A stretch of 64,000 bases of DNA, taken from assembly GCA_963769985.1 (NCBI GenBank), contig CAVYNR010000007.1, forward strand, positions 6,762 through 70,761. The letters run 5' to 3'. Of the stretch, positions 1-58,574 are shown piece after piece; the stretch's first letter is position 1; every line of letters starts with the position of its first letter. The DNA is from an uncultured Actinomycetes bacterium (GTDB lineage Bacteria > Actinomycetota > Acidimicrobiia > Acidimicrobiales > JACCXE01). Under the pieces are notes generated by a model. It worked only from the letters and a program-made list of their open reading frames with translations, searched no databases and was not told where the DNA came from. Made by a program: the position numbers and the translations under genes.

Positions 1-672
1 GTCGATGCTCATACGGCTGATGCGCTGCGTGTGATGCGAGCCTTCCTTCGCCATGTCGTTGGTGTCGACGATGCGCTCGACGCTCATGAACCGTCGACCG
101 GTCGGCGCGGCTTGCGCCATCAGGTCGTCGAAATACATGTCGGGACCGAGATACTGACCGTTGCCGCGCTCGTCGCCGCGGTTTTGGTGGATAAGCGCGG
201 CGTCCAATTCCAGCGCCGGCACCGCGACCAGTTCTTCGCCGTCGTCGTAGGGCGAGGTCACGGTCTTTAGTTTGGGGTTATCGCGGAACAGGTCACTGCC
301 GAGACCGACGCGCGTGGGCAGGAACGGAACCCGCCACGCCGCGGCCTGCAGCGCCAGCAGGAACATGCCTTCGTCGAGCGGTTCGTCTTCGATCGCTCCG
401 CTCTGACGCGCGGCGCGGAAGTGGGGCTCGAGCGGGATCGAGTCGAGCGACACGAAGGCGTAGATAACGCGCTTCACCTTGCCGGCCGCACAGAGCATGC
501 CGACATCCGGGCCGCCGTAGCTCACGATCGTCAGGTCCCTTAACGACGAGCGGGCGATCGCCCGCACCATCGACATGGGCTTTCGCCGCGAGCCCCATCC
601 CCCGATCGCGATCGTCATGCCGTCGCGTAACGACGCGACGACCTCGTCTTCGGTGGTGCGCTTGTCGCTCAC
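1..672 (-). CDS. ipdA: CoA-transferase alpha subunit (IpdA-like); 3' end runs off the window
   Basis: Hand translation of the reverse strand from GTG at 672 gives VSDKRTTEDEVVASLRDGMTIAIGGWGSRRKPMSMVRAIARSSLRDLTIVSYGGPDVG...TSPYDDGEELVAVPALELDAALIHQNRGDERGNGQY, an unbroken 224 codons. It matches my recollection of Rv3551 and lies directly downstream of echA20, as in M. tuberculosis. It is absent from the ORF track because no stop lies in the window. Confidence 0.85.
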   Translation of the reverse strand, partial: MSDKRTTEDEVVASLRDGMTIAIGGWGSRRKPMSMVRAIARSSLRDLTIVSYGGPDVGMLCAAGKVKRVIYAFVSLDSIPLEPHFRAARQSGAIEDEPLDEGMFLLALQAAAWRVPFLPTRVGLGSDLFRDNPKLKTVTSPYDDGEELVAVPALELDAALIHQNRGDERGNGQYLGPDMYFDDLMAQAAPTGRRFMSVERIVDTNDMAKEGSHHTQRISRMSID

Positions 673-685
673 TACTTCGAGCCCG

Positions 686-1444
686 TCACTTTGAAAACTT
701 GGCGTCGCGCTTTTCGACAAACGCATCGCGGGCTTCGTCGGCGACGCCCGACAAGTTGAGTTCGAACGTGAAGCCCTGCTCGTAGCGGTAGCTGCGCTTC
801 ACGTCGACCGGGTCGATCCCGTTGAGAGACGCCTTGGCGGCTCGGATGACCGTCGGACTCTTCGACGCGATCTGTTCGGCGACGTCGAGCGCAGCGGACC
901 GCAGGGCATCGGGCGACACGACCCGCAACACCGAACCGAAGGCGTGCAACTCTGCAGCGGTGGCGGTCGCGCTTGTGTAGACCATCGCCCGCATCTTGTG
1001 CTGCGGCACGAGGCGAGCGAGGTGCGTCGCCGCGCCGAGCGCGCCACGATCGACCTCGGGCAGACCGAAGGTCGCGTCGGTCGCCGCGATGACGACGTCG
1101 GCATTTCCCACCAGGCCGATGCCGCCGCCCAGGCAGAACCCGTTGACCGCCGCGATCACGGGAACCTCGCAGTCGTACACGGCAGCAAACGCAGCGAAGC
1201 AGCCCTTGTTCGCTCCAAGCAAGGCGTCGAAGCCGACGGTTGCCTGCATCTCCTTGATGTCGACGCCGGCGTTGAAGCCCCGGCCTTCCGCCCGCAACAC
1301 GACCACGTGCACGTCGGGATTCCGTCCCGCGGTGATCAGCTGATCGGCCAACTCGTACCACCCGGCGACGGTCAACGCGTTGACCGGCGGGTTGTCCATG
1401 ACGATCTCGGCGATGTGATCGGTGACCGTGGTGGAGATGCCCAT
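686..1444 (-). CDS. echA20: enoyl-CoA hydratase (EchA20-like crotonase)
   Basis: Intact ORF 686..1492 with crotonase motifs (RAEGRGFNAGVDIKE, FCLGGGIGLVGNADVVIA). I prefer the ATG at 1444 (MGISTTV) because AAGGAA lies 6 nt upstream. Synteny with ipdA supports the call. Confidence 0.85.
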   Translation of the reverse strand: MGISTTVTDHIAEIVMDNPPVNALTVAGWYELADQLITAGRNPDVHVVVLRAEGRGFNAGVDIKEMQATVGFDALLGANKGCFAAFAAVYDCEVPVIAAVNGFCLGGGIGLVGNADVVIAATDATFGLPEVDRGALGAATHLARLVPQHKMRAMVYTSATATAAELHAFGSVLRVVSPDALRSAALDVAEQIASKSPTVIRAAKASLNGIDPVDVKRSYRYEQGFTFELNLSGVADEARDAFVEKRDAKFSK

Positions 1445-1513: not shown

Positions 1514-2254
1514 ATGGGCATTGCACTCGACATGAGCGGGCTGGTCGTGCTCGTGACCGGTGGTGCCCGCGGTGTTGGCCGCGGCATCAGCGACGTCTTC
1601 GCGTCCGCCGGCGCGACGGTCGTGATCTGTGGGCGCACCGAGCCCGAGGGCGGCCCGGAGTTCATCGCATGCGACGTACGCGAGCCGGAGCAGGTGGACG
1701 CGCTCGTGAGCACGATCGTCGACCGACATGGTCGGCTCGATGCCGTCGTCAACAACGCCGGCGGCTCGCCCGCGGCCGACGCCGCGACCGCCTCCCCCCG
1801 CTTCTCGGCGTCGATCATCGGACTGAACCTGTTGGGTCCGCTGCACGTGTCCCAGCGCGCCAACGCGGTTATGCAAGAACAGCCCGACGGCGGCGCGATC
1901 GTGAACGTGGGCAGCGTGAGCGCACTGCGGCCGTCGCCGGGAACCGCCGCCTATGCGGCGGCCAAGGGAGGCCTCATCAGCCTGACCCAGACGCTGGCGG
2001 TCGAGTGGGCGCCCAAGGTACGAGTGAACTTGGTGACCGGCGGCATCATCGCCACCGAGCAGTCCGAACTCTTCTACGGCGACGAGTCGCGGCAGGCCGC
2101 GATCGCAAAGACGATCCCCGCCGGGCGCATGGGCGAACCGCTCGACATCGCAAACGCGTGCGTGTTCCTCGCGTCTCCGTTGGCGAGCTATATCAGCGGC
2201 GCCAACCTCGTGGTGCACGGCGGCGGCGAACCGCCGCGCTACCTCGAAGCGTAG
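1514..2254 (+). CDS. short-chain dehydrogenase/reductase (Rv3549c-like position)
   Basis: Intact 246-aa ORF with VLVTGGARGVGRGI cofactor motif and YAAAKGG catalytic motif. Divergent from echA20. Confidence 0.85.
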   Translation: MGIALDMSGLVVLVTGGARGVGRGISDVFASAGATVVICGRTEPEGGPEFIACDVREPEQVDALVSTIVDRHGRLDAVVNNAGGSPAADAATASPRFSASIIGLNLLGPLHVSQRANAVMQEQPDGGAIVNVGSVSALRPSPGTAAYAAAKGGLISLTQTLAVEWAPKVRVNLVTGGIIATEQSELFYGDESRQAAIAKTIPAGRMGEPLDIANACVFLASPLASYISGANLVVHGGGEPPRYLEA

Positions 2255-3456
2255 GTATCCAACGCGCGCGCGGCGGCGCGCGGGCCATCGGCTCCCTGAA
2301 GTTCACGGGCCAAACTACCGGCACGCGCTCGAATCCCGGCGTCGTTGACGGCAGTGTGCAACCGTCCGACAAGCCTGGCGCGTGTCAGGCGCTTGGCCGG
2401 CAACGGCTTCGGACCCGCGCCCAGCTCGGCTATGCGTTTGCCGAAATAGAACTGGTCGGTGATGTGGGGCACGATCACCTGTGGCAATCCGACCCGCGCC
2501 GCCATCGCGGTGGTGCCCGCCCCGCCGTGGTGCACGATCACGGCCATGCGGGGCAGGAGACGCCGATGGTTGACTCCCGTCACCCAGTGAACGTTGTCGC
2601 CACTCGCACCGTTCCCCAGGCCACCCCAGCCCTGATCGAGCACCGCGCGCAGACCGCTCTCCTCCAAGGCTCCAACCACCAGCGACGTGCGCGCGTCTGG
2701 ATCGCCCGCGGGCATGCTCCCGAATCCGATGTAGACCGGCGGCGGCCCGGCCGTCAGAAACGCCTCGAGCCCTGCATCCAACGCGGCGCCATCATCTTCG
2801 AGCAGGCAGGCGCCGAGAGGTGACGTGCCGCGGTGGCGGGGGGCGACGATGGCTTGGTCGTAGAGACCGAGCACGAGTGGCGACGACGTGATGGACTCCA
2901 GGAGCCGTGTTGGACCGCTCTACGTCCCGCCCGCGAGTAGGTGTCCACGGCGACGTCGCGAAACAGCCGGTCGAAGACCGCGTTCTGCGCGCCCCACAAC
3001 ATCGCGTTGACGGCTCGACCGCCGCCGTGGAGCGGCACGAAGTGAGGCGGTAGTCCCGCCGCGCGCTCGTTCGTCAGGCGCGAACGACGCGTACACGTAG
3101 CGGATGCCCTGGCTGGCGCACAGAGGCGGCGCGAATAGCTGGAGGCCGGCGCCGACGACCACATCGACGTCGCGACACGCGGCATCGAGCGCGTCGAGCG
3201 CGATTCCCGCTGCTGGTCGAAGCTGTCGACCGGCGCGAAGAAGATCCCGGAGTCCACCGTCTAACCCGGTTGATAGATCCTGCGCGTCGACATCAATCGG
3301 CAGGAAGCGAATGCCTCGTCGCTCGAACACGTCACGAAAGTCGCGCGTCGTGCACGCGGTAACCTCCCAGCCCGCGGCCAGCAATTCGGTGCCGAGAACC
3401 GCCAGCGGCACGACGTCCCCCGTGCTGCCAATCGGAGCGAGCGCTACGCGCTTCAC
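2239..3456 (-). CDS. GT1-family (MGT/sterol-glucosyltransferase-like) glycosyltransferase, frameshifted in this assembly
   Basis: N-terminal fragment 2920..3456 (MKRVALAPIGSTGDVVPLAVLG...), middle piece in frame 2754..3257, C-terminal fragment 2239..2874 (VIVHHGGAGTTAMAARVGLPQVIVPHITDQFYFG, the UDP-sugar motif). At least two frame changes. The 3' end overlaps the convergent SDR by 16 nt. Confidence 0.7.
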
Positions 3457-3589
3457 CGCCAGCTCAGACGAGGCGCTGCGGCGCGGAAGCGTGCTGGGAG
3501 CCGTGCGAGCATCGACAACAACGGTAGACGGCCGCGTTCGACTTGCTGTCCGGCACCACGACGAACACGCGAGCCTCTAGCGTGCCGCC

Positions 3590-4506
3590 GTGATCCGTGT
3601 TGCCAACGTGTCGAAGCGGTATGGCGACACGACCGCGCTCTGCGAAGTTGACCTTGCGGTGGATGCCGGCGAGATCGTCACGCTTCTCGGGGCGAACGGT
3701 GCCGGCAAGACAAGTTTGCTTTCGCTCATCGCAGGGCTCCGCCGACCTGACGACGGAAACGTGACCATCGGTGACGCAGCCGGCGATCCCCGGTTGCCGT
3801 CGGTGCGAGCGATGCTCGGGTTCGCGCCGCAGGAACTTGGGATTTATCCCGGAATCAGCGTCGCGGCCAACATTCTCTTTTTTGCAGAACTCTCCGGCAT
3901 GCGCGGCCCACGCGCACGCATCCGCGTCGAGGAAACGGCCGCCGATCTCGGGCTCACCGACCTGCTGGCACGTCGAGCGGGTGGACTATCGGGTGGCGAG
4001 CGGCGCCGAGTGCACGTTGCTATGGCGCTCGTACACCGGCCGAGTGTGGTCGTGCTCGACGAACCAACCGCAGGCGTCGATGTTACGGCGCGCGGCGACC
4101 TGGTGAGCCTGGTTCGCGCGTCGCCGAGCGCGGCGCCACGGTCGTCTATTCGACGCACTACCTGGCGGAAGCTGAGGCTCTCAATGGGCGCGTTGCCGTG
4201 TTACATCGTGGTCGAAAGGTTGCCGACGCTCCGCTGCACGCGCTCACGCAGGGCCTGCCCGGTCGCGTGAAGCTGACGTTTGACGGTGGAGCGCCGATGC
4301 TGGCGCTCGACGCCGCGTTGTGCCCCACGCTCGACGGCAACGTGTTGACGATCAGTACCCCGGAACCGGAGCGTCATGCGGCCACGGTTCTCGCCGCCGC
4401 GGCGGGACACGTCGAACGTCTGCGCTCGGTCCGCATCCTGCCTGCCAGCCTCGAGGACGTCTACGTCGCGGCGACCGGTGAAGCGTTGGCCGAGGAGGGT
4501 CGATGA
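3590..4506 (+). CDS. ABC transporter ATP-binding protein (DrrA/ABC-2 exporter type), one frameshift near 4110
   Basis: Walker A GANGAGKTS, signature LSGGERRRV, Walker B VVVLDEPTAGVD in ORF 3590..4270. The sequence continues as ERGATVVYSTHYLAEAEAL...VLHRGRKVAD in ORF 4198..4506. Confidence 0.8.
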
Positions 4507-5300
4507 CCTCAGCCGTGAAACCGTCCCGCGCGCTCACGCGCTTGGTAGCGCTGTGGCGTCATGAGTCCCGGATCATCACTAGGCAGGCACCGCTGCTGAT
4601 CGCGTCGATCGTGATGCCACTCGTAGTCATGGTGTTCTTGCAGCCGACCTTTCGTGTCGCCTTGGAGAACGAGGGCTACACGAACGCCTCCGGCGCCGAG
4701 CAGGCCGTGCCAGGTGTCGCGGTGATGTTCTCGTTCTTCATCGTCGGCGTGGTCGCGGTTGCCTTCCTGCGCGAACACGGGTTCGGCACCTGGGATCGTC
4801 TCCGCGCGAGCCCGGCTGCTCCCTGGGAAATCATCATTGGCAAACTTGGCCTGTTGTCGATCGTGGCCGGTCTTCAACAGGGACTGCTCTTCATCATTGG
4901 CGTGATGGGTGCGGGACTCGTTATCCGCGGCAGTGTCGTAGCGCTGGCGCTAGTGGCCGCCGGTCTAGTGGCCTCAGTGCTAGGCCTCGGTGTCGCGGTC
5001 ATGGCGGTGTGCTCGACGCAGCAACAGATTGCGCTCGTCCAGACACTCGGCACGATGGCTTCCGCCGGCCTCAGCGGCTCCCTCACCCCCGCGTCGCTGA
5101 TGCCCGAGTTTGCGAGCGTCATCGGCCCTTGCCTGCCGGGCTATTGGGCCATGCGCGGCTACCGAGCCGTGCTACTCGATGGAGCGGGCGTCGCCGACGT
5201 TCTTGGGTCGGTCGGGATGTTGTTGGGATTCGCCGCGCTGTTTGGAGGCGTCGCGATTATCCGCTTCCGTTCAGAGGAACCGCGCGCGAGTTGGTGGTAG
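4503..5300 (+). CDS. ABC-2 type transporter permease
   Basis: Intact 265-aa ORF with about six hydrophobic segments. ATGA start/stop overlap with the ATPase gene. Confidence 0.8.
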   Translation: MTSAVKPSRALTRLVALWRHESRIITRQAPLLIASIVMPLVVMVFLQPTFRVALENEGYTNASGAEQAVPGVAVMFSFFIVGVVAVAFLREHGFGTWDRLRASPAAPWEIIIGKLGLLSIVAGLQQGLLFIIGVMGAGLVIRGSVVALALVAAGLVASVLGLGVAVMAVCSTQQQIALVQTLGTMASAGLSGSLTPASLMPEFASVIGPCLPGYWAMRGYRAVLLDGAGVADVLGSVGMLLGFAALFGGVAIIRFRSEEPRASWW

Positions 5301-5322
5301 GCGTAGCAAATATGAGCGGGCC

Positions 5323-6063
5323 GTGAGCGCGATCTACCGCGCGTTGGAGACGGTACGGGGACGGATCGATACCCATGTCGTGGCGCGGTCCTCGATGAAA
5401 TCGACTGGCCAGCGTCGGGAGGTGCTCGTTCTAGGCGACTCGCACGCCAAGGTCTTCGTGCAGCCGTTGTTCCGTGAGGAGTTTCCGAATCATTTCTTCG
5501 GCGTCGTCAGCGTGGGCGGCGCCACGATCTCAGGTCTCGATAATCCGAACTCCAAAACGAAGGCACTTCCCCTCTTCACGACATATATGGCGGCAAGACA
5601 GGCCGCGACCACGATCACGTTGCTCGGCGAGGTCGACGCAGGCTTTGTGCTCTGGTACCGCGCCAAGAAGGCCAACGTCTCGATCGAGACGATGTTGGAG
5701 CGCGCGGTCGAGAACTACGAAGCCTTCCTGCAGAAGGTGGGCGAACGCTCCCGCGTCGTGGTGATCAGCGCGCCGCTTCCAACCATTCCCGACGGCAGTC
5801 GTGCCGGCGTCGTAGCGAACGCCAGGAAGTCGGTCACTGCGAGTCAGCAAGAGCGAACCGATTTGACCCTGGCTTTCAACGGGCGAGTGCGCGACGTATG
5901 TCGCAAGCACGACTTCACCTTCGTGTCGCTCGACGCCGAGTCGGTGGGTCCTGACGGACTGGTGCGGCCTGACCTACTCGGCGGCAATCCGCGGGACCAC
6001 CACTACGACCGCGAGCGTTACGCAGCGCTTATCGCAGCGAAACTGCGAGAGGTGCTCGACTAG
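5323..6063 (+). CDS. hypothetical protein, SGNH/GDSL-hydrolase-like
   Basis: Intact frame. The VLVLGDSHAKVF block resembles the GDS(x) nucleophile motif. I chose the GTG at 5323, just after the permease stop; the ATG at 5395 is an alternative. Confidence 0.55.
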   Translation: MSAIYRALETVRGRIDTHVVARSSMKSTGQRREVLVLGDSHAKVFVQPLFREEFPNHFFGVVSVGGATISGLDNPNSKTKALPLFTTYMAARQAATTITLLGEVDAGFVLWYRAKKANVSIETMLERAVENYEAFLQKVGERSRVVVISAPLPTIPDGSRAGVVANARKSVTASQQERTDLTLAFNGRVRDVCRKHDFTFVSLDAESVGPDGLVRPDLLGGNPRDHHYDRERYAALIAAKLREVLD

Positions 6064-6064
6064 G

Positions 6065-7246
6065 TCAGTTCTCGTCCATGCCTCCGAGCACGTCGGTGTC
6101 GTAACCCCATTCTTCGAAGGCGAAGGCCCATTCAGATGCGATGCGGTCAGCGAGGGAACGTTCAAGACGAAAACGGCCAGGTTCATAACCCTGAATTTCA
6201 TTTAGGTGCTCTCGAAGCCGCGGTTCGAACGCAGCCCAGCCCCCCAAGCCGAGTTCTTCGTAGACCCGACGCAGGGTCGCTACGGGATCGGCAACCAGGT
6301 CTTCGTAACGAATCTCTGCGTACTGTCCGGCAGGAATCGACGCGCGTTGCACGATGTGTTCCTGCATCAGTTCGCGATAGGAGTGGTAGAAGAACTCGCG
6401 CAGCTGATCCTCGTCGTGCGGTGCGAGTTCCATGATGTGCGCACCCGCCTCGATCGCGTGCCAGGCGGACAGGTAGACCCCGTAGGGGTGGCGCACGATG
6501 TGCAGGAACGGCGCGTCTGGCCACCGCTTCTGAATGTGGAGCAGCCGTGCCGTGTTCCACGGATTTTTCGCGACCAGCCGCTTGCCGTCTGCCAGCCACG
6601 ACGCTTTCCGGAACACCTTCTCGCGTGTCCGTTCCCAGCGTTCGAGTTCTTTGGGGGCGAGGTCGCGCATGAGAGCCCACTTGTCGTAAAAGCGCTGAGC
6701 ATGACGGGGGAAGTAGAGGAACCCTGGCGTGCCCTTGCCGGAGAGGAGGAAGACCGAACCCTCCTCCTCCTCCGGTTCGTCGGGGTGGAACGCCATGTCG
6801 TCCATCGGACGTTTCTCGGGCCCCATCCCCCCTAACAATCGATCCGTCAGTGGGCGTCCAGTAGCGCACATCGCGGGAAAGATCGCTTGGCGAAAACGGA
6901 GAAAGCCGAATTGCTCATCACGCGCGAGCAGGCGGAACAACATCGTGGTTCCGGACCGAGCGTGACCTACTACGAAGAAGGGCGAGTGCTCGATTACGTG
7001 TTCGCGCAGAGAGCGGCGCGTCGCGACCGCCTCGACAAGACGGACCGGAGCAAGGGCCGACGTTGCTCCGAGCAGGATCGCCGCCCGCGGCCAGTTGTCG
7101 ATGCTGTCGCGGTTGCGCCAGAACAACCGCGCCAAGTTGGTAGTCGTACTCCCCGCCATGGGCGAGACGATGTCGTGTTGGATGCGTTGTCGAATCGATG
7201 CGAGTCTCGACTCGCTGGGTCCCAGACCAGCGCCAGGAGCCGTCAC
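6065..7246 (-). CDS. sulfotransferase family protein (copy 1)
   Basis: Intact. PAPS 5'-phosphosulfate loop FVVGHARSGTTMLFRLL and 3'-phosphate-type block IVRHPYGVYLS. The GTG at 7246 overlaps the upstream TGA (GTGA). Conservation with copy 2 begins just after this start. Confidence 0.8.
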   Translation of the reverse strand: MTAPGAGLGPSESRLASIRQRIQHDIVSPMAGSTTTNLARLFWRNRDSIDNWPRAAILLGATSALAPVRLVEAVATRRSLREHVIEHSPFFVVGHARSGTTMLFRLLARDEQFGFLRFRQAIFPAMCATGRPLTDRLLGGMGPEKRPMDDMAFHPDEPEEEEGSVFLLSGKGTPGFLYFPRHAQRFYDKWALMRDLAPKELERWERTREKVFRKASWLADGKRLVAKNPWNTARLLHIQKRWPDAPFLHIVRHPYGVYLSAWHAIEAGAHIMELAPHDEDQLREFFYHSYRELMQEHIVQRASIPAGQYAEIRYEDLVADPVATLRRVYEELGLGGWAAFEPRLREHLNEIQGYEPGRFRLERSLADRIASEWAFAFEEWGYDTDVLGGMDEN

Positions 7247-8397
7247 GACTCGTCGACGCCTGAGAACGCCCCGGGGTCGTAACCCCACTCGTCGAAGGCG
7301 AAGGCCCACTCCGAAGCAATTCGTTCCGCCATGTCAGCATCGAGACGAAACCGTCCGGGCTGATATCCCTCAATCTCGACCAGGTACGCCCGGAGCTTGG
7401 GCTCAAACGCCGGCCAGCCGCCAAGGTCGAGTTCCTCGTAGATGCGCCGGAGCGTCGCGACGGGATCGGTCACCAGATCTTCGTATCGAATCTCTGCGTA
7501 CTGGCCCGCAGGGACCAACGATCGTTGGGCAATATGGGCTTGCATCAGACTCCTGTACTCCCGAAAGAAGAACTCCCGGAGGTCGTTGTCGTCGTGGCTC
7601 GCGAGCTCCATGATGTGTGCACCCGCCTCGATCGCGTGCCACGCCGACAAATAGACCCCGTAGGGGTGTCGGACAATGTGGAGGATCGGCGCGTCCGGCC
7701 ACCGCTCGAGGATTTGCGGCAGCCACGCGGTATTCCACGGGTTCTTCGCGACTAAGCGCTTGCCGTCATCGAGCCAGGACGCCTTGCGGAATACGGCATC
7801 GCGGGTGCGTTCCCATCGCCGCTTTTCCCGAAGTGTCAAGCCCTGCATAAGCGCCCACTTGTCGAAATACCTTTCCGCGTTGCGAGGGAAGTAGAGGAAG
7901 CCTCCGATACCCGTTCCCGAAAGCTGGTCGAGAGATAGTTCCTCCTCGTCGGGCTGGTCCGGGTACACGTCCATATCATCCATGGGGCGTGTTGCAGGGC
8001 CCATCCCGGTTAAGAATCGGTCGGCCAACGGGCGGCCCGTTGCACACATGGCGGGGAAGATGGCCTGTCGAAACCTAAGGAAGCCGAACTGGTCGTCGCA
8101 GGCGAGAAGGCGAAAGAGCATCGTCGTACCCGAGCGGGCATGACCAACCACGAACAAGGGCGACTCTTGCATCACGTGTCTGCGAAGCGGGCGGTACGTC
8201 GCAATCGTCTCTGCTAGTCGTACCGGCGCCAGGACCGACGTCACGCCTAGTAGCAGTGCCGCCCGCGGCCAGTTATCGATGCTGTTGCGGTTCTGCCAAA
8301 ACATCCGAATGAGGTTCGTCGTCCGGGCGCCCGCCATTGGCGAAACGATGTCGTGTTCAATCCGGCGTCGGACAGACGCGATCGTCGGTCGGCTCAC
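7243..8397 (-). CDS. sulfotransferase family protein (copy 2, tandem paralogue)
   Basis: Intact, with the same motifs as copy 1. By eye roughly three quarters identical to copy 1. The GTG at 8397 overlaps the TGA of the upstream SDR (GTGA). Confidence 0.8.
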   Translation of the reverse strand: MSRPTIASVRRRIEHDIVSPMAGARTTNLIRMFWQNRNSIDNWPRAALLLGVTSVLAPVRLAETIATYRPLRRHVMQESPLFVVGHARSGTTMLFRLLACDDQFGFLRFRQAIFPAMCATGRPLADRFLTGMGPATRPMDDMDVYPDQPDEEELSLDQLSGTGIGGFLYFPRNAERYFDKWALMQGLTLREKRRWERTRDAVFRKASWLDDGKRLVAKNPWNTAWLPQILERWPDAPILHIVRHPYGVYLSAWHAIEAGAHIMELASHDDNDLREFFFREYRSLMQAHIAQRSLVPAGQYAEIRYEDLVTDPVATLRRIYEELDLGGWPAFEPKLRAYLVEIEGYQPGRFRLDADMAERIASEWAFAFDEWGYDPGAFSGVDES

Positions 8398-9170
8398 GGG
8401 TGTTGCGAGCTGACGGACAGAACCTCGCCCGTCATGTAGCTGGCGTAATCGCTCGCAAGGAAGATGATGACGTTGGCGACTTCCCACGGCTCAGCGGCGC
8501 GGCCGAAGGCCTCCTTCGCTGTGAGCTCTTCCAGCAGTTCCTCGGTCGTCACCTTCGACAAGAACTCGTGCATGGCGAGTGAAGGCGCGACCGCGTTGAC
8601 GCGCACGCCGAAGGGTGCGGCCTCGATGGCCGCCGAGCGGGTCAGCGCCATGACACCGGCCTTGGCCGCCGCGTAGTGCGCCTGGCCCGCCTGCGCGCGC
8701 CAACCGATGACCGACGCGTTGTTCACGATCGAACCCGACCCCCGTGCTGTCATGTGACGAAGGGCGGCGCGCGTGCAGCGCATCGTGCCGTTGAGCGTGA
8801 CGTCGACGACGGACGACCACTGCTCGTCGGTCATCTCCGCGAGATTCGCAGTACCGCCGAGGCCGGCATTGTTGACGGCCACGTCGATGCCGCCGTGCTG
8901 GCTGACGGCGGCGTCGAACAGCGCCTGCACTTGGGCTTCATCGGTAACGTCGCAGGCGACCGCGAGCGGGCGCGCGCCCATGATCGGTTCCAACGACTCG
9001 GCCGCTTCGTTGAGTCGGCGCTCGTGCCGGTCGCTCAGCACCACGACCGCGCCCTCTTCGGCGCAGCGCTTGGCCGTGGCAAACCCGATGCCGGTGCCGG
9101 CAGCGGCGGTGACCAGCACGATGCGATCACGCAGCAGGTTGTGACCCTCGACGTAGGGAGGCGAGGTCAC
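8394..9170 (-). CDS. short-chain dehydrogenase/reductase
   Basis: GTG at 9170 gives VTSPPYVEGHNLLRDRIVLVTAAAGTGIGFATAKRC...YAAAKAGV...; 258 codons, intact. Track ORF 8394..9503 is a chimera of this gene and the upstream gene's tail. Confidence 0.8.
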   Translation of the reverse strand: MTSPPYVEGHNLLRDRIVLVTAAAGTGIGFATAKRCAEEGAVVVLSDRHERRLNEAAESLEPIMGARPLAVACDVTDEAQVQALFDAAVSQHGGIDVAVNNAGLGGTANLAEMTDEQWSSVVDVTLNGTMRCTRAALRHMTARGSGSIVNNASVIGWRAQAGQAHYAAAKAGVMALTRSAAIEAAPFGVRVNAVAPSLAMHEFLSKVTTEELLEELTAKEAFGRAAEPWEVANVIIFLASDYASYMTGEVLSVSSQHP

Positions 9171-10074
9171 GCACGTTGGGCTTGTCACCCGATGCCGCGG
9201 CCTTGGCCATCTCCTCGAGACGGGCGAGCATCGGCATCTTCTCCTGGCCGACGGTGCCGTCGATCCGCGCCTCGATCTCCTCGGGCGTCCAGCGGCCGTC
9301 GGTGTACATCGCGCGCAACCCGTTGGTTGGTTCCACACCGCAATCTTGCCGCCGACGGCCGTGTACACCTGGCCAGTGATGTGGCGCGACTTGTCGCCGA
9401 GCAGATACACCACGAGCGGCGCCACGTCTTCGGGCTCACCCATTTCCGCCAGCTCCATCGGCACGTTGGCCGCCATCCGCGTACCGCGCGATCGGCGCCA
9501 CACAGTTGGCGGTGACGCCGTACTTGTTGAGGCCGAGCGCCACGCTACGCGTCAACGACACGATGCCGCCCTTGGCCGCCGAGTAGTTCGCCTGCGCGAC
9601 GCTGCCCTGGAACGCGCCGGACGTGAACCCGATCAACGACCCGGAGTTCTGCTTGCGCATCACCGCGGCCGCGGCGCGGAAGACCGTGAACGTGCCCTTC
9701 AGGTGCGTCTCGACTACCGGGTCGAACTCTTCCTCGGACATGTTGAACAGCATCCGTTCGCGCAGGATGCCGGCCACGCACACCACGCCGTCGATCCGGC
9801 CCCACTCGTCGATACCGGCCTGCACGATGCGCTCCCCACCCGCCATCGTGGTGACGGATTCGGCGATCGCGATCGCCGAGCCGCCAATTTCGCCGATCTC
9901 CTTGACGACGGCGTCGGCGACTTCGCTGGTGGGGTCCTCGCCGGCCATGCCGACGCCGTAATCGGCCACGACCACCCGGGCACCCTCGGCCGCGCAGGCC
10001 AACGCAACCGCTCGACCGATTCCTCTACCGGCACCCGTGATCGCAACGACTTTGTCCTGCAAATAACCGCTCAA
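9127..10074 (-). CDS. SDR of the MFE-2/Hsd4A-like 3-hydroxyacyl-CoA dehydrogenase type, about 2 frameshifts
   Basis: ORF 9436..10074 (KVVAITGAGRGIGRAVAL...YSAAKGGIVSLTRS) continues out of frame as TRMAANVPMELAEMGEPEDVAPLVVYLLGDKSRHITGQVYTAVGGKIAVWNQP, then RAMYTDGRWTPEEIEARIDG (ORF 9127..9336). Confidence 0.7.
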
Positions 10075-10095
10075 CGGGTCCCCTCTGGTTGGAAA

Positions 10096-10112
10096 TCTGA
10101 CGCGACGTTAGC
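10096..10112. promoter_or_regulatory. palindromic operator candidate TCTGACgcgacGTTAGC (site 2 of 7, weakest)
   Basis: Lies in the divergent gap between the SDR operon (-) and fadD19-like (+). The right arm is degenerate. Confidence 0.35.
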
Positions 10113-12908: not shown

Positions 12909-14892
<1,984 letters not shown>

Positions 14893-16171: not shown

Positions 16172-16254
16172 TCACTCCTGACTAAGTCTTCGCCCAAACA
16201 TTTGTTCGGATTAGGTCTTGTTGGTGTCACACCCCCGGCGGTAAAATTACATCG

Positions 16255-17404
16255 ATGTCATTCGTCACGTGGGCCGCGGAACTGGAATCGGCTGAGGTGC
16301 CCTCAGACGCCGATGGGCTGGCCGAAGCAGTCGCCTGCCATGACCGCTACACCGCCAAGTCGGCGCTCGCTCTGGCGGGGTTCAAGGCGTCGGGTGATTG
16401 GGATCTCGACGGGTCAACGTCGATGGTCGCATGGTTACGCGACCGCGGCATGACACGGGCGAACGCGGCGGAGCTCGTGGGTTTGGCCGACAAACTTCGG
16501 CATCTTCCGGTAACCGCGGCGGCCTGGGTGACCGGTGCGTTGTCGGGCGGCCAGGTGCAGGTGATCGCGGCGCTCGTGATCGACCGCCACATCGACTTGT
16601 TCGCCTCCCGCGAATCCGACCTCGTGCCCTCGTTCGCTGGCTTGTCGGTGGCTGACACCGCGGTGGCGATGCGCACGTGGCGCGCCAAGGCCGACGCGCT
16701 CGACGAGGGTCCCGAACCTCGCGACCCGGGCTGCGAAGCTCGCCTGTCGCCCACCCTCGATGACCGTGGCGTGTTGACGGCGTCGTTAGACGCCGAAGGC
16801 CACGCCCTCGCAGCCGCCGCGTTACAACTCGCCGACTCGAACGACTTCGACGTGCCCGCGCCGCAGCGGCGCGGCCAAGCACTCAAAGACATCTTCCGTT
16901 GGTTCCTCGACCACCAACAGTCAAAGACCGGTGGTCGGCACCGCCCGCACCTCAACATCGTGATCAAGGGCGAAACCATCGGCACCGAACACGTCGAAGG
17001 CCACGACGCCGTCAGCGGCATGCGCCTCGACTCACGCACCCTGGAGCGATTGATTCCGCGACCAGCATTGCCGCTACCCCGGCTGTGATCGCCCCGCCAC
17101 CTGGTGCGACGCCCACCACGTCACATGGTGGCGCCACAACGGTCCAACCTCGATCAACAACCTCGTGCTGTTGTGCTCACGTCACCACCACGTGATCCAC
17201 AAACCCCGCTGGAAAGCCGAACTTCGATTAACCGGCGAGTTCATCGTCACCACGCCGTGGGGATTCGCGCGAAGTAGCTGGCCACCCGGTCACGCGCGAC
17301 AACCCGAACTCAACTGGCTCAACCAGCCCGCTGGGCTGCCCGACGCCGACCAAGACGTCACCGAACTCGTAAGCCAACACGTCCGCGCACTCGTCGACGC
17401 GTAG
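16255..17404 (+). CDS. DUF222 + HNH endonuclease protein (REP13E12-like), one frameshift near 17050
   Basis: ORF 16255..17088 is the DUF222-type N-terminus. The C-terminus [43 protein letters not shown] lies in ORFs 16899.. and 17165..17404. Confidence 0.75.
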
Positions 17405-27765: not shown

Positions 27766-27782
27766 TCTAACGCACCGTCAGA
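27766..27782. promoter_or_regulatory. palindromic operator candidate TCTAACgcaccGTCAGA (site 3 of 7)
   Basis: Lies in the gap between the ltp2-like stop and the SBP start, that is, at the head of the ABC operon. One core mismatch. A second small inverted repeat, GTGACacacGTCAC, follows at 27788-27801. Confidence 0.5.
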
Positions 27783-27796
27783 TATTGTGACACACG

Positions 27797-28992
27797 TCAC
27801 ACGCAGCTATTCGACCGGCCCAGGATCAGCCCGCTGGTTGGAACCCCGGTGCCCGCGGTGACGAGCACGTGTTCGGCGCCCGGAACCTGGTTGACGCTGG
27901 TGCCCCGCACCTGGCGCACGCCCTCGGCGATGCCGTTCATGCCGTGGATATACGCCTCGCCGAGCTGGCCGCCGTTGGTGTTGATGGGCAGGCCGCCGCC
28001 CAGCTCGATGCCGGCGTCGACGATGAAGTCCTTCGCCTCGCCCCGTCCGCAGAAGCCGAACTCTTCGAGCTGGCACAGCACGAACGGCGTGAAGTGGTCG
28101 TAGAGACCGCCGTCTGGATGTCCGCCGGGCTGACAGTCCCGACGTGCGCCCACAGCTGACGCGCGACCAGGCCCATCTCGGGCAGGCCGGCCATGTCGTC
28201 GCGGTAGTAGCTCGTCATCATCTCCTGGCCCTTCGACGCGCCCTGCGCCGCGGCTGCGATCACCGCCGCGCGGTTGCGGGCAGTCCACGGCGCGCTCGGC
28301 GCTGGTGATGACGAGCGCCTGCGCGCCGTCGCTCTCCTGGCAGCAGTCGAGCAGGTGCAGCGGCTCGACGATCCAGCGCGAGTTCTGGTGGTCCTCGAGC
28401 GTGATCGGCTGGTTGTAGAACCACGCGGCCGGGTTGGTCGACGCGTGGAACCGGTCGGCCACGGCGACGCGACCGAAGTCCTCGCTCGTCGCGCCGAAGG
28501 TGTGCATGTAGCGACGGGCGAACATCGCCACCCACTGCGCCGGCGTGACCAGGCCGTAGGGCGAGTACCACGCGTAGTGCGCGTTCTCGGTGTTGGGCGC
28601 CGGCGGGCGATCCTGCACGCCGGCACCGAAGCGGTTACCCGAGCGCTCGTTGAAGGCGCGGTAACAGACCACCACGTCGCACACGCCGCTGGCGACCGCC
28701 ATCGCCGCTTGCAGCATCGTGCCGCCGCCCGCGCCGCCGCCGTAGTGCACGCGGCTGAACAGCTTGAGGTCGTTCATGCCGAGGTTGCGCGCGACCTCGA
28801 TCTCGGGGTTGTTGTCCATGGTGAACGTGACCATGCCGTCGACTTCGGACGGCGCGATCCCGGCGTCGTCGAGCGCGGCCTTCGCCGCTTCGACGGCGAG
28901 GCGCAGTTCGCTGCGGCCCGAGTCCTTCGAGAACTCGGTGGCGCCGATGCCGGCGATGGCGGTGCGTCCGCCGATGTCGATGCGTCGGTCAT
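27797..28992 (-). CDS. ltp2: SCP-x-type thiolase / steroid side-chain aldolase-lyase (Ltp2-like), about 3 frameshifts
   Basis: AIAGIGATEFSKDSGRSELRLAVEAAKAALDDAG, YRAFNERSGNRFG, LYDHFTPFVLCQLEEFGFCGRGEAKDF, NGGQLGEAYIHGMNGIAEGVRQVRGTSVNQVPGAEHVLVTAGTGVPTSGLILG match my recollection of Rv3540c. Confidence 0.8.
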
Positions 28993-29405
28993 GGCGAGCT
29001 CGATCGGGACGGTCACCGTGACGGTGCCCGGTGACGTGGTCGCCGAGGTCGTTGGCGCCGCGCACGTCGACGGCGACGACGCTGTCGTCGACCGCGGTGA
29101 CGGTGCCCGTCAGGTGCATCGTGTCGCCCGGATAGTTGGGCGCGCCGAGGCGGATCGCGACGCTTCTTGATCACGCGCGCGCGGGCCGGCCCAGTCGGTC
29201 ACGAAGCGGCCGACGAATCCGTTGGTCGCTGAGGATGTTCATGAAGATGTCCTTCGACCCGCGCTCGTGCGCGAGCTCGCGAGTCGTGGTGCACGTCTTG
29301 GTAGTCGCGCGACGCGATCGCGGTGGCCACGATGAGCGTGCGCGTCGAGAGGAATGTCGAGCGGCGGCAGCTCGTCGCCGACCTGCACGTCTTCGGCCAC
29401 GCCAC
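28989..29405 (-). CDS. chsH1: MaoC-like enoyl-CoA hydratase small subunit (ChsH1-like), frameshifted; stop not resolved
   Basis: The ATG at 29405 overlaps the upstream TGA (ATGA): MSGVAEDVQVGDELPPLDIP, then IVATAIASRDYQDVHHD, then GDTMHLTGTVTAVDDSVVAVDVRGANDLGDHVTG in other frames. Confidence 0.6.
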
Positions 29406-30539
29406 TCATCGGTACGCCTCCGCGAGTTCGGCGCCGAGGCGCGCGAGTTGGCGGCTGGCGCCGCCGAGGCGTGTCGGCGATCTGCTTGCCCCACAGGAAG
29501 TAGCGGTGGACCGGGTAGTCGACATCCGCGCCCATGCCGCCGTGCAGGTGCTGCGTCGCGTGCACGACCCGCTCGCCGCCTTCGGCCGCCCACCACTTGG
29601 CGATCGCGACTTCCTTGCGACGCGTCGAGCCCGTGGTCGAGCCGCCACGCCGCCTGCCACAGCGTGACGTCCATGGCGCTCGGTGTCGATGTAGGCGTCG
29701 GCGGCGCGCAGCGACACGCCTTGGAACGTCGACAGCGGCTTGCCGAACTGCATGCGCGGTCCGAGGTGTACTCCGCCGTCAGTCGCAGCGCCTCCTCGGC
29801 CACGCCGAGTTGGATCGCCGCGAGCGCGACGAGCGCCGCGGTCGCGGATCCACGCTGCACGTCGGCGCCGCCGCCGATCTCGCCGACGACGTCGCCCGCG
29901 CGACGATGACCCCGTCGAATAGCACGTGGGCGTGGCTCTGACGGTCGGTCGTGTCGACGCGCTCGCGCTCGACGCCGGGCGCGGCGGGGTCGACAAGGAA
30001 CACCGTCACGGCGCCGTCGGGGTCGTGGCGGGAACGAGCACGCGGTCGGCGACGTGCCCGGCCGGCACCGCCGACTTCGTGCCGTCGATGCGCCACCCGT
30101 CGTCCTCAGGCATGGCGGTGGTGCGCGGCGCGGCCGACGTCGATCGAGCCGGGCTCGTCGAGCGCGGCGGTGAAGACGGCGTCGCCGCTCACGATCGCCG
30201 GCAGCCACTCGGCGCTGCTGCGTCGGCCGAACCGAACTCCGCCAGCGGCAGCGCGCCGAGTCGCATCGTCGCGAGCAACGGGACTGGCGCGAGGCGCCGG
30301 CCCTGCTCCTGCGAGCAACAGGCACAGCTCGACCATGCCGAGGCCGCTGCCGCCGTGCGCTTCGGGCACGGCAGAGACCGAGCAGGTTCGCCTTGGCCAA
30401 CGCGGCCCACAGCGCGTCGTCGATGCGCGTGTCGGTGGCCTCGACGGCCTTGATGCGTTCGACGCTGACCATGCCGTCGAAGATCTGCGCCGCCAGAGTC
30501 GCGCACGGCGAGTTGCTCGTCGGTGAAGGTGAAGTCCAT
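29406..30539 (-). CDS. acyl-CoA dehydrogenase, beta-type subunit (FadE28/FadE27-like), several frameshifts
   Basis: MDFTFTDEQLAVRDS, ANLLGL/SVPEAHGGSGLGMVELCLL, RMQFGKPLSTFQGVSLRAADAYIDTEAMDVTLWQAAWRL, HLHGGMGADVDYPVHRYFLWGKQIADTLGGASRQLARLG. Confidence 0.7.
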
Positions 30540-31470
30540 TAGCGCGCGCCCCCTTGCGGGACGGAACTGCGGCAGCGTGAGGTCGTCGTCGAACGCGACC
30601 ATCTCCGCCTCGACGGCCATGCCGATCGCCACGTCGGCGGGTTCGACGTCGATCAGGTTCGACACCAGCCGCGTGCCCTCTTCGAGCTCGATCACGGCGA
30701 CGATCAGCGGGTAGTCGAACGCCGGCACCTGCGGGTAGTGGTTGACGACGTAGCTGTAGACGGTGCCGCGGCCGCTGGCCTCGATCGTGTCCCACTCGAG
30801 CGAGTGACACGTCGGGCACATCGGCCCGGGCGGGTGGCGCAACGTGCCGCACGACGCGCAGCGCTGGATCAGCAGCTGGCCGTTCTTCGCGCCCTCGAAC
30901 CAGAAGGCGTTGTCGTGCGTGATCGACGGGCGCGGACGCTGCGGCCGCGCCGCCGCCTTGGGCACCGGCGCGAACTTGAGGATGCGGAACCGCATCGTGC
31001 CGACGAGTTCGCCGCGCCTCGTCGCGGTAACTCCTGCCGGGTCGTGACGAAGTGACCGACGCCGAGGCCGGTCGTCTTCTCTTCGCGAGACCGACTCGAT
31101 GGTGACGGTCGTGGTGATGCGATCACCGGGCTGGAGGTAGCGCACGTACTCCTGGTCGCAGTTGGTCGCGACGACCGACGTGAAGCCCGGCGCTGTCGAG
31201 CAGACGAAGCAGTTCGTCCTGCACGGTGGCGCCGCGTGCGGCCGCCGAGGCCGCGCATCGACCACGCCTGCAGCATCGTGGGCGGCGCCACGATGCCGGC
31301 GTGGCCGTCGGCGCGTGCCGCTTCGTCGTCGACGTAGATCGGGTTGTGGTCGCCGATGGCGTCGCACCAGTGGCGGATCATCGCCTCGTTGACGGCGTCG
31401 AGCGCCACGCGTCGGCGGGCCGATGACGCGGCCTTCGTACGCCGTGCAGCTGCTCGAGGAAGTCGCTCAC
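30539..31470 (-). CDS. chsH2: MaoC-like hydratase fused to DUF35 OB-fold/zinc-ribbon domain (ChsH2-like), several frameshifts
   Basis: VSDFLEQL..., AVNEAMIRHWCDAIGDHNPIYVDDEAA, then the DUF35 part NAFWFEGAKNGQLLIQRCASCGTLRHPPGPMCPTCHSLEWDTIEASGRGTVYSYVV. The track ORF reads through into the next gene; a TAA overlapping the ATG (TAATG) is reachable with a 1-nt change in a G5 run. Confidence 0.7.
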
Positions 31471-31472
31471 GC

Positions 31473-32658
31473 CTACCGCGCCTGCCTGGCCATGCCGAGG
31501 CCGACCGCTCGCCACGATCTCGCGCTGCACTTCGTTGACGCCGCCGCCGAACGTGTTGATCTGCGCCGAGCGCCCCGCCTTTTCGAGTTCGCCGGCGAGC
31601 ACGGCGCCGGGCGAGCCGGCGACGCAGGTAACCGGCCGCGCCGACGATGCCGAGCAGCACGCGGTACACCTCGACCGCGGTCTCGGTGCCGTAGACCTTC
31701 ACGGCGGACGAGTCGCCCGGGCTGAGCGTCCCGTCGGCGACCGCGGCGGCCATGCGCCAGTTCAGCAGCCTCATCGCTTCGAGCCTTGGCGTAGGTGCGG
31801 GCCAAGTCGAGCTGCACCCAGGGCACGTCGATCATGCGCTGGTCCGGCGCCGCTTCGGCGGTCGACGCCCAGCGCGCCACGTCGTCCCACAGGCGATGCG
31901 CCAGCCCGCCGAGCGCGGCGAGCCCGACGCGTTCGTGGTTTAGCTGCGTGGTGATCATCCGCCAGCCGGCGTTCTCTTCGCCGACGCGGTTGGCGACCGG
32001 CACGCGCACGTCGGCGTAGTAGGTCGCCGTGGTCTTGGTGCCGCCAACGGTCATGATCGGCGTGGCAGCTGAACCCGGGCGACGAGGTCGGCACGAGCAG
32101 GATCGAGATGCCGCGGTGCTTGGGCGCTTCGGTGTCGGTGCGACACGCCAGCCAGATGTAGTCGGCCTGGTCGGCGCCGCTGGTGAACACCTTGTTGCCG
32201 TTGATGACGTACTCGTCGCCGTCGCGCACGGCGCGCGTCTTGCAGCGACGCCAGGTCGGTGCCGGCGTCGGGCTCGGTGTAGCCGATGGCGAAGTTGATC
32301 TCGCCGCGCGACGATGCCGGGCAGGAACTCCTTCTTCTGCTCGTCGGAGCCGAACGCCATCAGCGTCGGGCCGACGGTGTTGAGCGTGACGAACGGGAAC
32401 GGCGCGGCGGCGCGCTGCACCTCGTCGAAGAAGATGAACTGGTCGGTCGCCGGCCGGCCCTGCCCGCCGAACTCCTTGGGCCACCCGACGCCGAGCCAGC
32501 CGTCGCTGCCCATCTGCCGCACGAGGCGGCGGAAGACCGGCCCGCCCTCGGGGTCGGCGGCGAGTTCGGCGCGCACGTCGGGGCGCAGGAGCTTGCGCGA
32601 AGTAGGCGCGCAGCTCGTCGCGAAGCGCGCGCTGCTCGGCGGTTTCTTCGAGGTGCAC
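31473..32658 (-). CDS. fadE29: acyl-CoA dehydrogenase, alpha-type subunit (FadE29-like), several frameshifts
   Basis: VHLEETAEQRALRDELRAYFA, LGVGWPKEFGGQGRPATDQFIFFDE, AVRDGDEYVINGNKVFTSGADQADYIWLACRTD, INTFGGGVNEVQREIVA. Confidence 0.7.
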
Positions 32659-32660
32659 GA

Positions 32661-33866: not shown

Positions 33867-33961
33867 TACTTACCCGGGCGGGCGCCCGCAGGCCCGCCCT
33901 CCTCCCAAGCATGGGGCCCCTCGCTCCGCTCGCCCCATGCGGGCCGTCCATACGGCAACAG

Positions 33962-34933: not shown

Positions 34934-34950
34934 TCTGACAACCCGTCAGA
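34934..34950. promoter_or_regulatory. palindromic operator candidate TCTGACaacccGTCAGA (site 4 of 7, perfect)
   Basis: Lies 3 nt from the KstR-like box. The -10-like TAGTTT overlaps its left edge. Confidence 0.6.
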
Positions 34951-53093: not shown

Positions 53094-53110
53094 TCTGACG
53101 CACCGTCAGG
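53094..53110. promoter_or_regulatory. palindromic operator candidate TCTGACgcaccGTCAGG (site 5 of 7, perfect core)
   Basis: Lies in the divergent gap between the amidohydrolase-led 10-kb operon (-) and the LLM at 53129 (+). Confidence 0.6.
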
Positions 53111-57778: not shown

Positions 57779-57795
57779 TCTGACGGTCCGTCAGG
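57779..57795. promoter_or_regulatory. palindromic operator candidate TCTGACggtccGTCAGG (site 6 of 7, perfect core)
   Basis: Lies 20 nt upstream of the amidohydrolase_2 GTG and overlaps the stop codon of the upstream SDR. Confidence 0.55.
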
Positions 57796-58557: not shown

Positions 58558-58574
58558 TCTGACAATCTGTCAGA
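58558..58574. promoter_or_regulatory. palindromic operator candidate TCTGACaatctGTCAGA (site 7 of 7, perfect; extended ATCTGACA/TGTCAGAT)
   Basis: Centred in the 41-nt gap between two divergent SDR genes. Confidence 0.65.

Follow-up and report, generated by a model that had tools for sequence, protein, structure and literature searches.

In the Nod-factor system, a glycolipid is sulfated from 3'-phosphoadenosine 5'-phosphosulfate (PAPS) by NodH or NoeE, acetylated by NodL and exported by NodIJ, an ATP-binding cassette (ABC) transporter of the ABC-2 type. Variable O-antigen and capsule-type loci provide a second model, in which conserved flanks surround a diverged mosaic of sugar-tailoring and ABC-2 export genes. 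The logic of the former and the organisation of the latter both have parallels in an island of six genes (~2239–8393) that we analysed within a 64,000-nucleotide stretch (hereafter the window) of contig CAVYNR010000007.1, from an uncultured actinobacterium, where it lies between two convergent short-chain dehydrogenase/reductase (SDR) genes of a HIP (steroid ring C/D) catabolic cluster. The island encodes a family 1 glycosyltransferase (GT1), the ATPase and permease of an ABC-2 exporter, an SGNH-fold protein and two tandem sulfotransferases, StfA and StfB, and the five gene types that the original prediction had read from the letters alone were all recovered by Pfam profile, fold and alignment. 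Our favoured reading, to which we grant about even chances, is that of a portable and fast-diverging cassette making and exporting a sulfated glycoside or glycolipid, whose position at an insertion hot spot is no sign of an action on steroids. Its conserved core, as read from gene content, consists of a predicted Stf-family PAPS-dependent sulfotransferase, a GT1 and a DrrAB-type ABC-2 exporter. This combination seems confined to a few uncultured actinobacteria, its parts all belonging to known families, and our literature search on the cassette returned papers on sulfated natural products and gut steroid sulfotransferases, none of which describes it.

The closest solved folds to the two sulfotransferases are those of mycobacterial STF1 (PDB 2zq5) and STF9 (PDB 2z6v), with which they share the PAPS-dependent Sulfotransfer_3 fold as well as the 5'-phosphosulfate-binding (5'-PSB, GxxRSGTT) and 3'-phosphate-binding (3'-PB, RHP...S) motifs. 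Identity to mycobacterial Stf proteins is however ~20–30%, and the genes described here are always linked to GT1 and ABC-2 genes, unlike the known Stf loci. Regarding Stf3/Cyp128 and the sulfomenaquinone S881, the Stf proteins are ~30% identical to proteins annotated as omega-hydroxy-beta-dihydromenaquinone-9 sulfotransferase, but no NCBIfam equivalog was matched and no P450 gene adjoins Stf in any cassette, which does not fit an Stf3-type assignment. The likeness to the Nod-factor system is a functional resemblance only: the ATPase matches NodI models at 7e-44 and Stf gives a faint NoeE match, but scores are far below the equivalog cut-offs (150 vs 521 for NodI), NodABC are absent, and the glycosyltransferase is a GT1 and not a GT2. 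In DrrAB exporters, known from daunorubicin resistance and, as mycobacterial DrrABC, for phthiocerol dimycocerosate (PDIM), an ATPase is likewise coupled with an ABC-2 permease, and drrA and drrB are the best NCBIfam models for the island's exporter. Scores nevertheless stay under the cut-offs, as illustrated by the orthologous ATPase of L001, an independent 4.1-Mb contig from another sample that carries a homologous cassette (TIGR01188 drrA, 182 bits vs 312) and by the drrB scores (40–44 vs 223), and the island holds a single permease gene. With antibiotic and natural-product glycosyltransferases (GtfA/B/D, Rgt, MGT/OleD/OleI), the GT1 shares the GT-B fold and the Glyco_transf_28 and EryCIII-like domains, with similarity over the full length (GtfB, 2e-30; Rgt to the L001 GT1, 1.8e-28); equivalog cut-offs are again far from being reached (L001 GT1, 99.8 vs 800 for Rgt and 36.7 vs 260 for MGT; GT1a of the related locus L003, 114 vs 260 for MGT at 9e-33, with an OleI match in addition), and no nonribosomal peptide or polyketide synthase scaffold genes lie nearby. 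Finally, the site differs from O-antigen and capsule loci in that the cargo of relatives is not always glycan-related and that no polymerase or initiating transferase is present.

Gene assignments in the window were based on Pfam, NCBIfam and orthologue alignments. The GT1 (2239–3456, minus strand) is a GtfB/Rgt-like UDP-glycosyltransferase combining an N-terminal Glyco_transf_28 domain (PF03033, 34.7 vs a cut-off of 26.2) with an EryCIII-like_C domain (PF06722, 69 vs 31.7); its closest solved structures are GtfB, GtfA and GtfD, with an alignment to GtfB over the full length, and it is 55% and 49% identical to the GT1s of the relatives L002 and L001, respectively, and 45–55% to the other GT1b genes. 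It falls in the natural-product and xenobiotic branch of GT1 enzymes, the type acting on small lipophilic aglycones, and is divergent from the exporter operon across an intergenic region (3457–3589) that is presumed, from its position, to contain internal promoters, and in which no sigma-70-like site, operator motif or terminator excess was detected. The operon opens with the DrrA/NodI-like ATPase (3590–4506, plus strand; ABC_tran, PF00005, 1.5e-29, 103.7 bits), whose stop overlaps the start of the adjacent and coupled DrrB-like permease (4503–5300, plus strand; ABC2_membrane, PF01061, 9.7e-20, 71.4 bits, full length) in an ATGA at 4503–4506. This permease is 67–74% identical to those of all other cassettes.

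Both sulfotransferases count 364 aa and are encoded on the minus strand, StfA at 6065–7159 (Sulfotransfer_3, 2.3e-29; 100% identical to P0001) and StfB, its tandem paralogue with the same domain and a match to P0002, at 7243–8337. They are 74% identical to each other with a direct-repeat spacing of 1178 nt, and score 103.6 and 106.5 bits against PF13469 (cut-off 27). The PAPS-binding motifs GHARSGTT and VRHPYGVYLS are invariant across the Stf clade and align to those of STF1 and of the olefin-synthase sulfotransferase, while the Stf structural model (predicted local distance difference test, pLDDT, 72.7) retrieves STF9 (2z6v) and STF1 (2zq5) as top Foldseek matches (probability 1.00, template-modelling score 0.52–0.59). 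On profile, motif and fold, StfA and StfB are thus predicted PAPS-dependent sulfotransferases of the Stf family, and their ratio of nonsynonymous to synonymous substitution rates (dN/dS, 0.11) indicates that both copies are under purifying selection. Two tandem Stf genes are also observed in L002 (8925–9984 and 10052–11143), where the upstream copy carries one frameshift and part of its region was called as a 404-aa open reading frame (ORF) on the opposite strand; StfA and StfB of the window resemble one another more closely than they do either copy of L002.

Between the permease and StfA, the SGNH-fold esterase/acyltransferase-like protein (5323–6063, plus strand; 246 aa, identical to P0091) was recognised from weak Pfam SGNH/GDSL matches, motifs and fold. 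Its profile scores are below the gathering thresholds (PF19040, 20 vs 27; PF13472, 19.3 vs 32.9) and no NCBIfam model was matched; 18 homologues all keep the motifs GDSH and DHHYD, with GGATxSG and GEVD also conserved, and its AlphaFold model (pLDDT 81.7) matches with Foldseek probability 1.00 platelet-activating factor acetylhydrolase and sialate O-acetylesterase, the top folds, and acetylxylan esterases. The protein is probably an O-acyl esterase or transferase. It is present only in the window's version of the cassette, and its homologues, found by the hundreds at 43–57% identity in cyanobacteria, methanotrophs, Verrucomicrobiota and others, include no close one in actinobacteria. In two of three unrelated contexts, these homologues stand beside sulfotransferases together with glycosyltransferases or nonulosonic-acid genes, which suggests, at the level of gene neighbourhoods, a recurrent functional pairing between sulfotransferases and this uncharacterised SGNH family falling below Pfam thresholds. 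The homologues at L173 (3027–6753) and L174–L176 (6001–8834) adjoin Sulfotransfer_1, _2 and _3 genes and GT4 or NeuB/CMP-sugar genes.

The cassette core is recurrent outside the window. Among 5.8 billion sequences, the Stf clade comprises 12 sequences at least 55% identical, the next identity dropping to 38%, and all six readable contexts of this clade (the window, L001, L002, L003/L004, L005/L006 and L167/L168) place Stf beside ABC, ABC-2 and GT1 genes. Linkage to steroid genes is limited to the window and L001, at one and the same junction, vs four unrelated contexts (L002, L003/L004, L005/L006 and L167/L168); orthologous cassettes are therefore largely tied to non-steroid loci, a situation close to the one that the original prediction had itself named as contrary to a steroid substrate. 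More distant Stf homologues are devoid of the ABC, ABC-2 and GT1 linkage, and among the matches listed by a contig scan for Stf we found distant sulfotransferases only (at most 35% identity), mostly from planctomycetes and with no ABC-2/GT1 linkage. Extended versions in L003, L005 and L167 add to the core a FabH-like beta-ketoacyl-ACP synthase III (KAS III), an SDR, a second, MGT-like GT1 and a large FtsX-type permease, and the KAS III and SDR genes stay next to Stf and GT1 despite differing gene orders. Because these extended clusters carry the KAS III and the SDR, their content suggests a fatty-acid- or polyketide-derived aglycone. A large sulfatase gene (PF00884, 1–1776 of L003/L004) also lies ~8 kb from the extended sulfotransferase cluster, and may be a coincidence or a turnover enzyme for the sulfated product.

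The portability of the cassette is best seen at its insertion site. On the left, the GT1 meets an SDR (1514–2254, plus strand; adh_short_C2, 1.5e-54; 86% identical to its L001 orthologue) that is divergent from echA20 and Rv3549c-like by synteny; on the right, StfB is co-directional with, and 56 nt downstream of, an SDR (8394–9170, minus strand; 86% identical to L001 9208–9984) named ipdF (Rv3559c)-like from its synteny with fadD3/fadE30/ipdF (PMC5380842). When metagenomes were scanned with the SDR of the left flank, 80 loci were recovered. Many have Mycobacterium-like layouts, in which the SDR divergent from echA20 has another SDR directly behind it in the same orientation, equivalent to the Rv3549c/Rv3548c arrangement (gene names, as for fadD3/fadE30/ipdF, from PMC5380842). 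Loci closer to the window differ, their left SDR converging instead on an SDR and acyl-CoA dehydrogenase (ACAD) pair corresponding by synteny to ipdF/fadE30 beside fadD3, and the ipdF-like SDR is the neighbour of the left-flank SDR in island-free relatives. The gap between the two SDR genes is empty (L108, 55 nt), holds nothing identified (L148, 0.64 kb) or accommodates an L,D-transpeptidase (L129, 1.2 kb), an M1 peptidase (L090, 1.8 kb), a Liv-type ABC importer (L089, 5.5 kb), the homologous four-gene cassette of Stf, ABC, ABC-2 and GT1 (L001, 10001–14021, 4.0 kb) or the six-gene island of the window (6.1 kb). This junction, at the 3' ends of two convergent operons, looks like a permissive cargo hot spot, and genes found at an Rv3549c-like/ipdF-like SDR junction should not be presumed to be steroid-active.

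These comparisons also redraw the limits of the island, which had been placed at 2239–9170. Its start stays at ~2239, but the SDR at 8394–9170 is a conserved flank belonging to the catabolic cluster and lies outside the island, which ends at ~8393. Likewise, the island was thought to split the adjacent pair Rv3549c/Rv3548c; it is indeed inserted into a steroid cluster, but its right neighbour is ipdF-like, so that we rejected this gene as the Rv3548c orthologue, the Rv3548c-like SDR (9436–10107, minus strand) being located one gene further and inverted. No integrase or transposase domain appeared among the Pfam matches of the island and no tRNA marks it, no flanking direct or inverted repeats exceeded chance-sized matches, the tandem Stf duplication being the only signal above chance, and promoter and terminator scans gave nothing above chance.

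The comparison with L001, whose junctions are exactly those of the window, reveals how much more diverged the cargo is than its surroundings. In both genomes, the 3' ends of the left-flank SDR and of the GT1 overlap by the same 16 nt, and Stf directly follows the ipdF-like SDR, with a gap of 16 nt in L001 vs 56 nt in the window. Amino-acid identity to L001 is high in the flanks (echA20 94%, ipdA 92%, both SDRs 86%, ipdC-like 89–96%) and lower in the island (Stf 72–73%, ABC-2 permease 68%, ABC ATPase 66%, GT1 49%), with dN values of 0.18–0.24 in the island vs 0.04–0.10 in the flanks, and dS values of 1.1–1.8 vs 0.8–0.95. The window's cassette is about equally close to that of L001 and to that of L002, which sits beside dnaE and a patatin gene. 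Furthermore, the relationships among the GT1s are discordant, the L001 GT1 sharing 68% identity with the GT1b of L167 vs 49% with the GT1 of the window. Compared with L001, the ABC/ABC-2 pair of the window is inverted, the SGNH gene has been gained and Stf has been duplicated in tandem. Empty and alternative sites, lower GC content at third codon positions (GC3), diverged island genes, the discordant GT1 and SGNH relatives in other phyla together support a horizontal acquisition of the island, as the original prediction had proposed, and these sequence comparisons indicate an accessory locus of mosaic make-up that has passed between lineages, probably by recombination via its conserved flanks.

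From the families present, we propose that the cytoplasmic GT1 would glycosylate a hydroxylated lipophilic acceptor, and that StfA and StfB would O-sulfate the resulting glycoside from PAPS, each perhaps with its own position or its own acceptor. The SGNH enzyme would adjust the acyl decoration, and the anionic glycoside would leave through the ABC-2 pump, either into the envelope or into the medium. This general logic of sulfation and/or glycosylation followed by ABC-2 export, already put forward from the letters alone, is compatible with the predicted enzyme families, and the sulfoglycolipid role that had then been mentioned as an alternative fits better than a steroid substrate. If true, a sulfated glycolipid or glycoside would give soil bacteria of Acidimicrobiia-like type a new class of envelope or secreted metabolite, and a testable role would emerge for the SGNH-fold family that is repeatedly paired with sulfotransferases.

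Several observations weigh against this proposal. The reading is a prediction from gene content, and the contexts that were read amount to a handful. The cassettes of the window, L001 and L002 lack the KAS III, SDR and FtsX partners, and the lipid aglycone is extrapolated from the more distant clusters. If the frameshifts of the GT1 and ATPase genes described below are real, the pathway is broken in this genome. The 16-nt GT1/SDR overlap shared by the window and L001 could reflect one ancient insertion whose genes then diverged fast, and not repeated exchange. Lastly, in both of these genomes the Stf genes come directly after the ipdF-like SDR in the same orientation, with no terminator detected and an operator-bearing promoter upstream, which makes co-expression of Stf with steroid catabolism by read-through from the ipdF-like operon possible on gene order.

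The same enzymes could alternatively form a detoxification or resistance module, analogous to phase II/III metabolism, in which the GT1 and Stf would inactivate a lipophilic toxin and the DrrAB-like pump would expel the conjugate. The resemblance of the GT1s to antibiotic-modifying enzymes over their full length (Rgt, MGT, OleI; structures of GtfB/A/D), the position of the ABC pair nearest to the DrrA/DrrB drug-efflux models, and the small, portable and exchangeable character of the cassette, typical of resistance determinants, all point in this direction. We nonetheless regard this function as rather unlikely, given that the NCBIfam scores are all far below the curated cut-offs (Rgt, MGT, drrA), that KAS III and SDR genes, superfluous for pure detoxification, remain linked through rearrangement in the three extended versions, and that no regulator gene (e.g. 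TetR, MarR) was found within the cassette.

The steroid substrate of the original prediction, according to which the cassette would sulfate or glycosylate and export a hydroxylated steroid or derived intermediate as a detoxification or signalling branch, is not supported by the comparison, and we now consider it improbable. In its favour, the cassette is inside the HIP cluster in the window and in L001, Stf stands immediately behind the ipdF-like SDR and is read in the same direction (56 nt apart in the window, 16 nt in L001) with no terminator detected, and an operator-like palindrome occupies the divergent promoter upstream of this run. The GT1 also resembles sterol 3-beta-glucosyltransferase (5e-20), a likeness limited to the C-terminal donor-binding domain. 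However, the two steroid-linked cases share junction and lineage and thus count for at most one event, the four other contexts are unrelated to steroids, and a peptidase, an L,D-transpeptidase or an amino-acid-type importer takes the same site in relatives. HIP-cluster enzymes moreover process CoA-thioester ring C/D fragments and not free hydroxysteroids (PMC5380842), and such fragments are poor candidates for glycosylation and export.

The palindromic 17-mer TCTGATGCGTCGTCAGA (TCTGACG-N3-CGTCAGA) was located at 1464–1480, in the echA20/SDR divergent intergenic region, that is, in the flank and not in the island, and at 10096–10112, in the SDR/fadD3 divergent intergenic region, upstream of a same-strand run formed by the SDR, the ipdF-like SDR, StfB and StfA. 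With at most two mismatches, five further copies (27766–27782, 34934–34950, 53094–53110, 57779–57795 and 58558–58574) bring the total to seven sites in the window vs 0.46 expected, for a pattern that was itself derived from two of the seven, these two being the ones inspected and both divergent intergenic. The site at 1464–1480 has its equivalent in L001 at 14784–14800. As a candidate operator of the catabolic cluster, for a repressor of TetR type, this motif is distinct from the mycobacterial KstR2 box, of which the window contains no real match. None of its seven sites falls within 2239–8393, including the GT1/ABC divergent promoter, and among the papers searched on KstR2 we found no link to a sulfotransferase. 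A variant in which a phase II/III counterpart would be wired into steroid catabolism, with Stf read through from the ipdF-like operon and a sulfated glycoside of a hydroxylated steroid-derived or co-occurring lipophilic metabolite secreted by the ABC-2 pump as a detoxification product or signal, is allowed because gene order and the absent terminator permit co-transcription in both steroid-linked genomes; we give it a low probability as well.

Base composition, which had been advanced as a sign of foreign origin from a few hand-counted lines, was recomputed over the whole window (mean guanine-plus-cytosine (GC) content 67.7%; standard deviation of the 1-kb windows 2.4). Among its 1-kb windows, those from 4.5 to 8.5 kb have the lowest GC content (60.7–63.6%), and the 60-nt lines of 4503–8390 average 62.3% vs 68.1% outside (Mann-Whitney p = 5e-14), with 27% vs 6% of lines at or below 58% and 0% vs 15% at or above 75%. 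The dip is thus real but modest, ~6 points and confined to 4.5–8.4 kb, where spot counts drawn from the tails had suggested ~20; line 25021 (78.3%), for instance, belongs to the upper tail. At the gene level, GC decreases from the GT1 (68.4%) and ATPase (66.7%), whose total GC is not low, to the ABC-2 permease (64.3%), the SGNH gene (62.2%) and both Stf genes (61.7%). GC3 is lower in every island gene (0.70–0.78) than in the flanking genes (0.80–0.89). This depression of the cassette's GC3 is found in the window and L001, and in L002 and L003 GC3 does not differ from that of the host background. Because Stf is 1.5–4 points under the locus average in every relative examined, part of the dip is intrinsic to the Stf gene and is doubled here by the tandem copy. 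A max-phase GC scan was set aside, being confounded by frameshifts and gene boundaries.

The integrity of the reading frames bears on whether the cassette still works in this genome. The GT1 frame is interrupted by two compensating 1-nt frameshifts (~2905 and ~3078) that put its middle 58 codons in another frame, and the ATPase carries one frameshift (~4112–4119), its tblastn matches being split over two frames; the ABC-2 permease, both Stf genes and the ipdF-like SDR are intact in full-length alignments to homologues. A codon-model frame tracker called 73–106 frameshift-like switches in the 64 kb, a range that reflects its dependence on the switch penalty, high values missing verified frameshifts and low ones over-calling in an intact AMP-binding ORF. 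Its longest clean interval at these settings (4111–9327) covers the 4.5–9.2 kb stretch that had been singled out as the longest without frameshift. This observation was correct but carries little biological weight, because switch density rises with local GC (Spearman 0.50–0.56) and because switches are few across the entire first 10 kb, whose first 2.2 kb of flank are frameshift-free. Long stop-to-stop ORFs elsewhere in the window were rejected as evidence of other intact stretches, as they turned out to be two-gene fusions across frameshifts, and the automatic ORF picker chose some wrong-frame ORFs.

If these shifts were real, the island would be a decaying remnant with at most Stf and SGNH activities left. 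The two frameshifts of the GT1, which is also the most diverged component (45–55% to other GT1b), and that of the ATPase would be expected of such a state, yet we see little chance of it. Switches occur throughout the window, even in core catabolic genes, and since the shifted orthologues keep 76–96% identity to L001, gene decay is unlikely. In the fadD3/ipdC-like region, compared with L001 at 87% nucleotide identity, four 1-nt coding indels in 2.8 kb form a pattern that fits low-coverage long-read errors. Apart from the part read in another frame, the tblastn alignment of the GT1 to those of L002 and L001 covers its whole length, and its HHGGAGT motif is kept. The window's indels are probably assembly errors of this kind. 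Examples were noted at 10494, 11092, 12236, 13.8–14.7 kb and 23.7–27 kb, most genes being fragmented or fused, and gene-level annotation of the contig requires frameshift-aware methods. The naming of related contigs in Flye style (such as contig_6680) and the fragmentation of L002, which is of lower quality, also point to low-coverage long-read assembly errors. Finally, an assembly chimera joining a lower-GC, frameshift-poor stretch from another organism, to which composition and frameshift density differing from most of the window might point, is highly improbable and was rejected because the independent L001 contig has a homologous cassette at the same junction, with the same 16-nt overlap and Stf after the ipdF-like SDR, the first 2.2 kb of undoubted flank being moreover as frameshift-free as the island stretch.

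Beyond the island, the catabolic cluster itself is rearranged. The interval between fadD3 and the ipdF-like SDR is occupied by the inverted Rv3548c-like SDR in the window vs a fadE30-like ACAD in L001 (8045–9211) and other relatives, and no orthologue of this ACAD was found elsewhere in the window (best match 42% identity); gene order thus indicates a second rearrangement point beside the island. To the left lie an ipdA-like CoA transferase (1–798, minus strand) and the echA20-like hydratase (686–1444, minus strand), and to the right fadD3-like, ipdC-like (NMO) and hydrolase genes run from 10125 on the plus strand. The best named relatives of the echA20-like protein, all derived from metagenome-assembled genomes (MAGs), are Actinomycetota (88–92% identical), Acidimicrobiales (82–86%), Microthrixaceae (83%) and Acidimicrobiia (80–81%). 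The host is probably, from these identities, an uncultured Acidimicrobiia-like actinobacterium and no Mycobacterium, for which M. tuberculosis is only a distant reference.

From 1 to 20.6 kb and beyond, the window carries a large steroid catabolic gene set of HIP and side-chain type, which includes a thiolase-like gene (27800–29170), a ChsH2-like gene (30192–31466) and ACADs (31476–33869), although MAGs of Acidimicrobiales and Microthrixaceae are the nearest named relatives of this genome. A literature search that covered Acidimicrobiia listed no paper with this word among its top matches. Within the catabolic cluster, 7 kb from the island, a P450 fragment (15.1–16.2 kb) is immediately followed by a DUF222-domain ORF (16186–17085); in actinobacteria, this domain family is linked with mobile genes of the HNH endonuclease-like kind.

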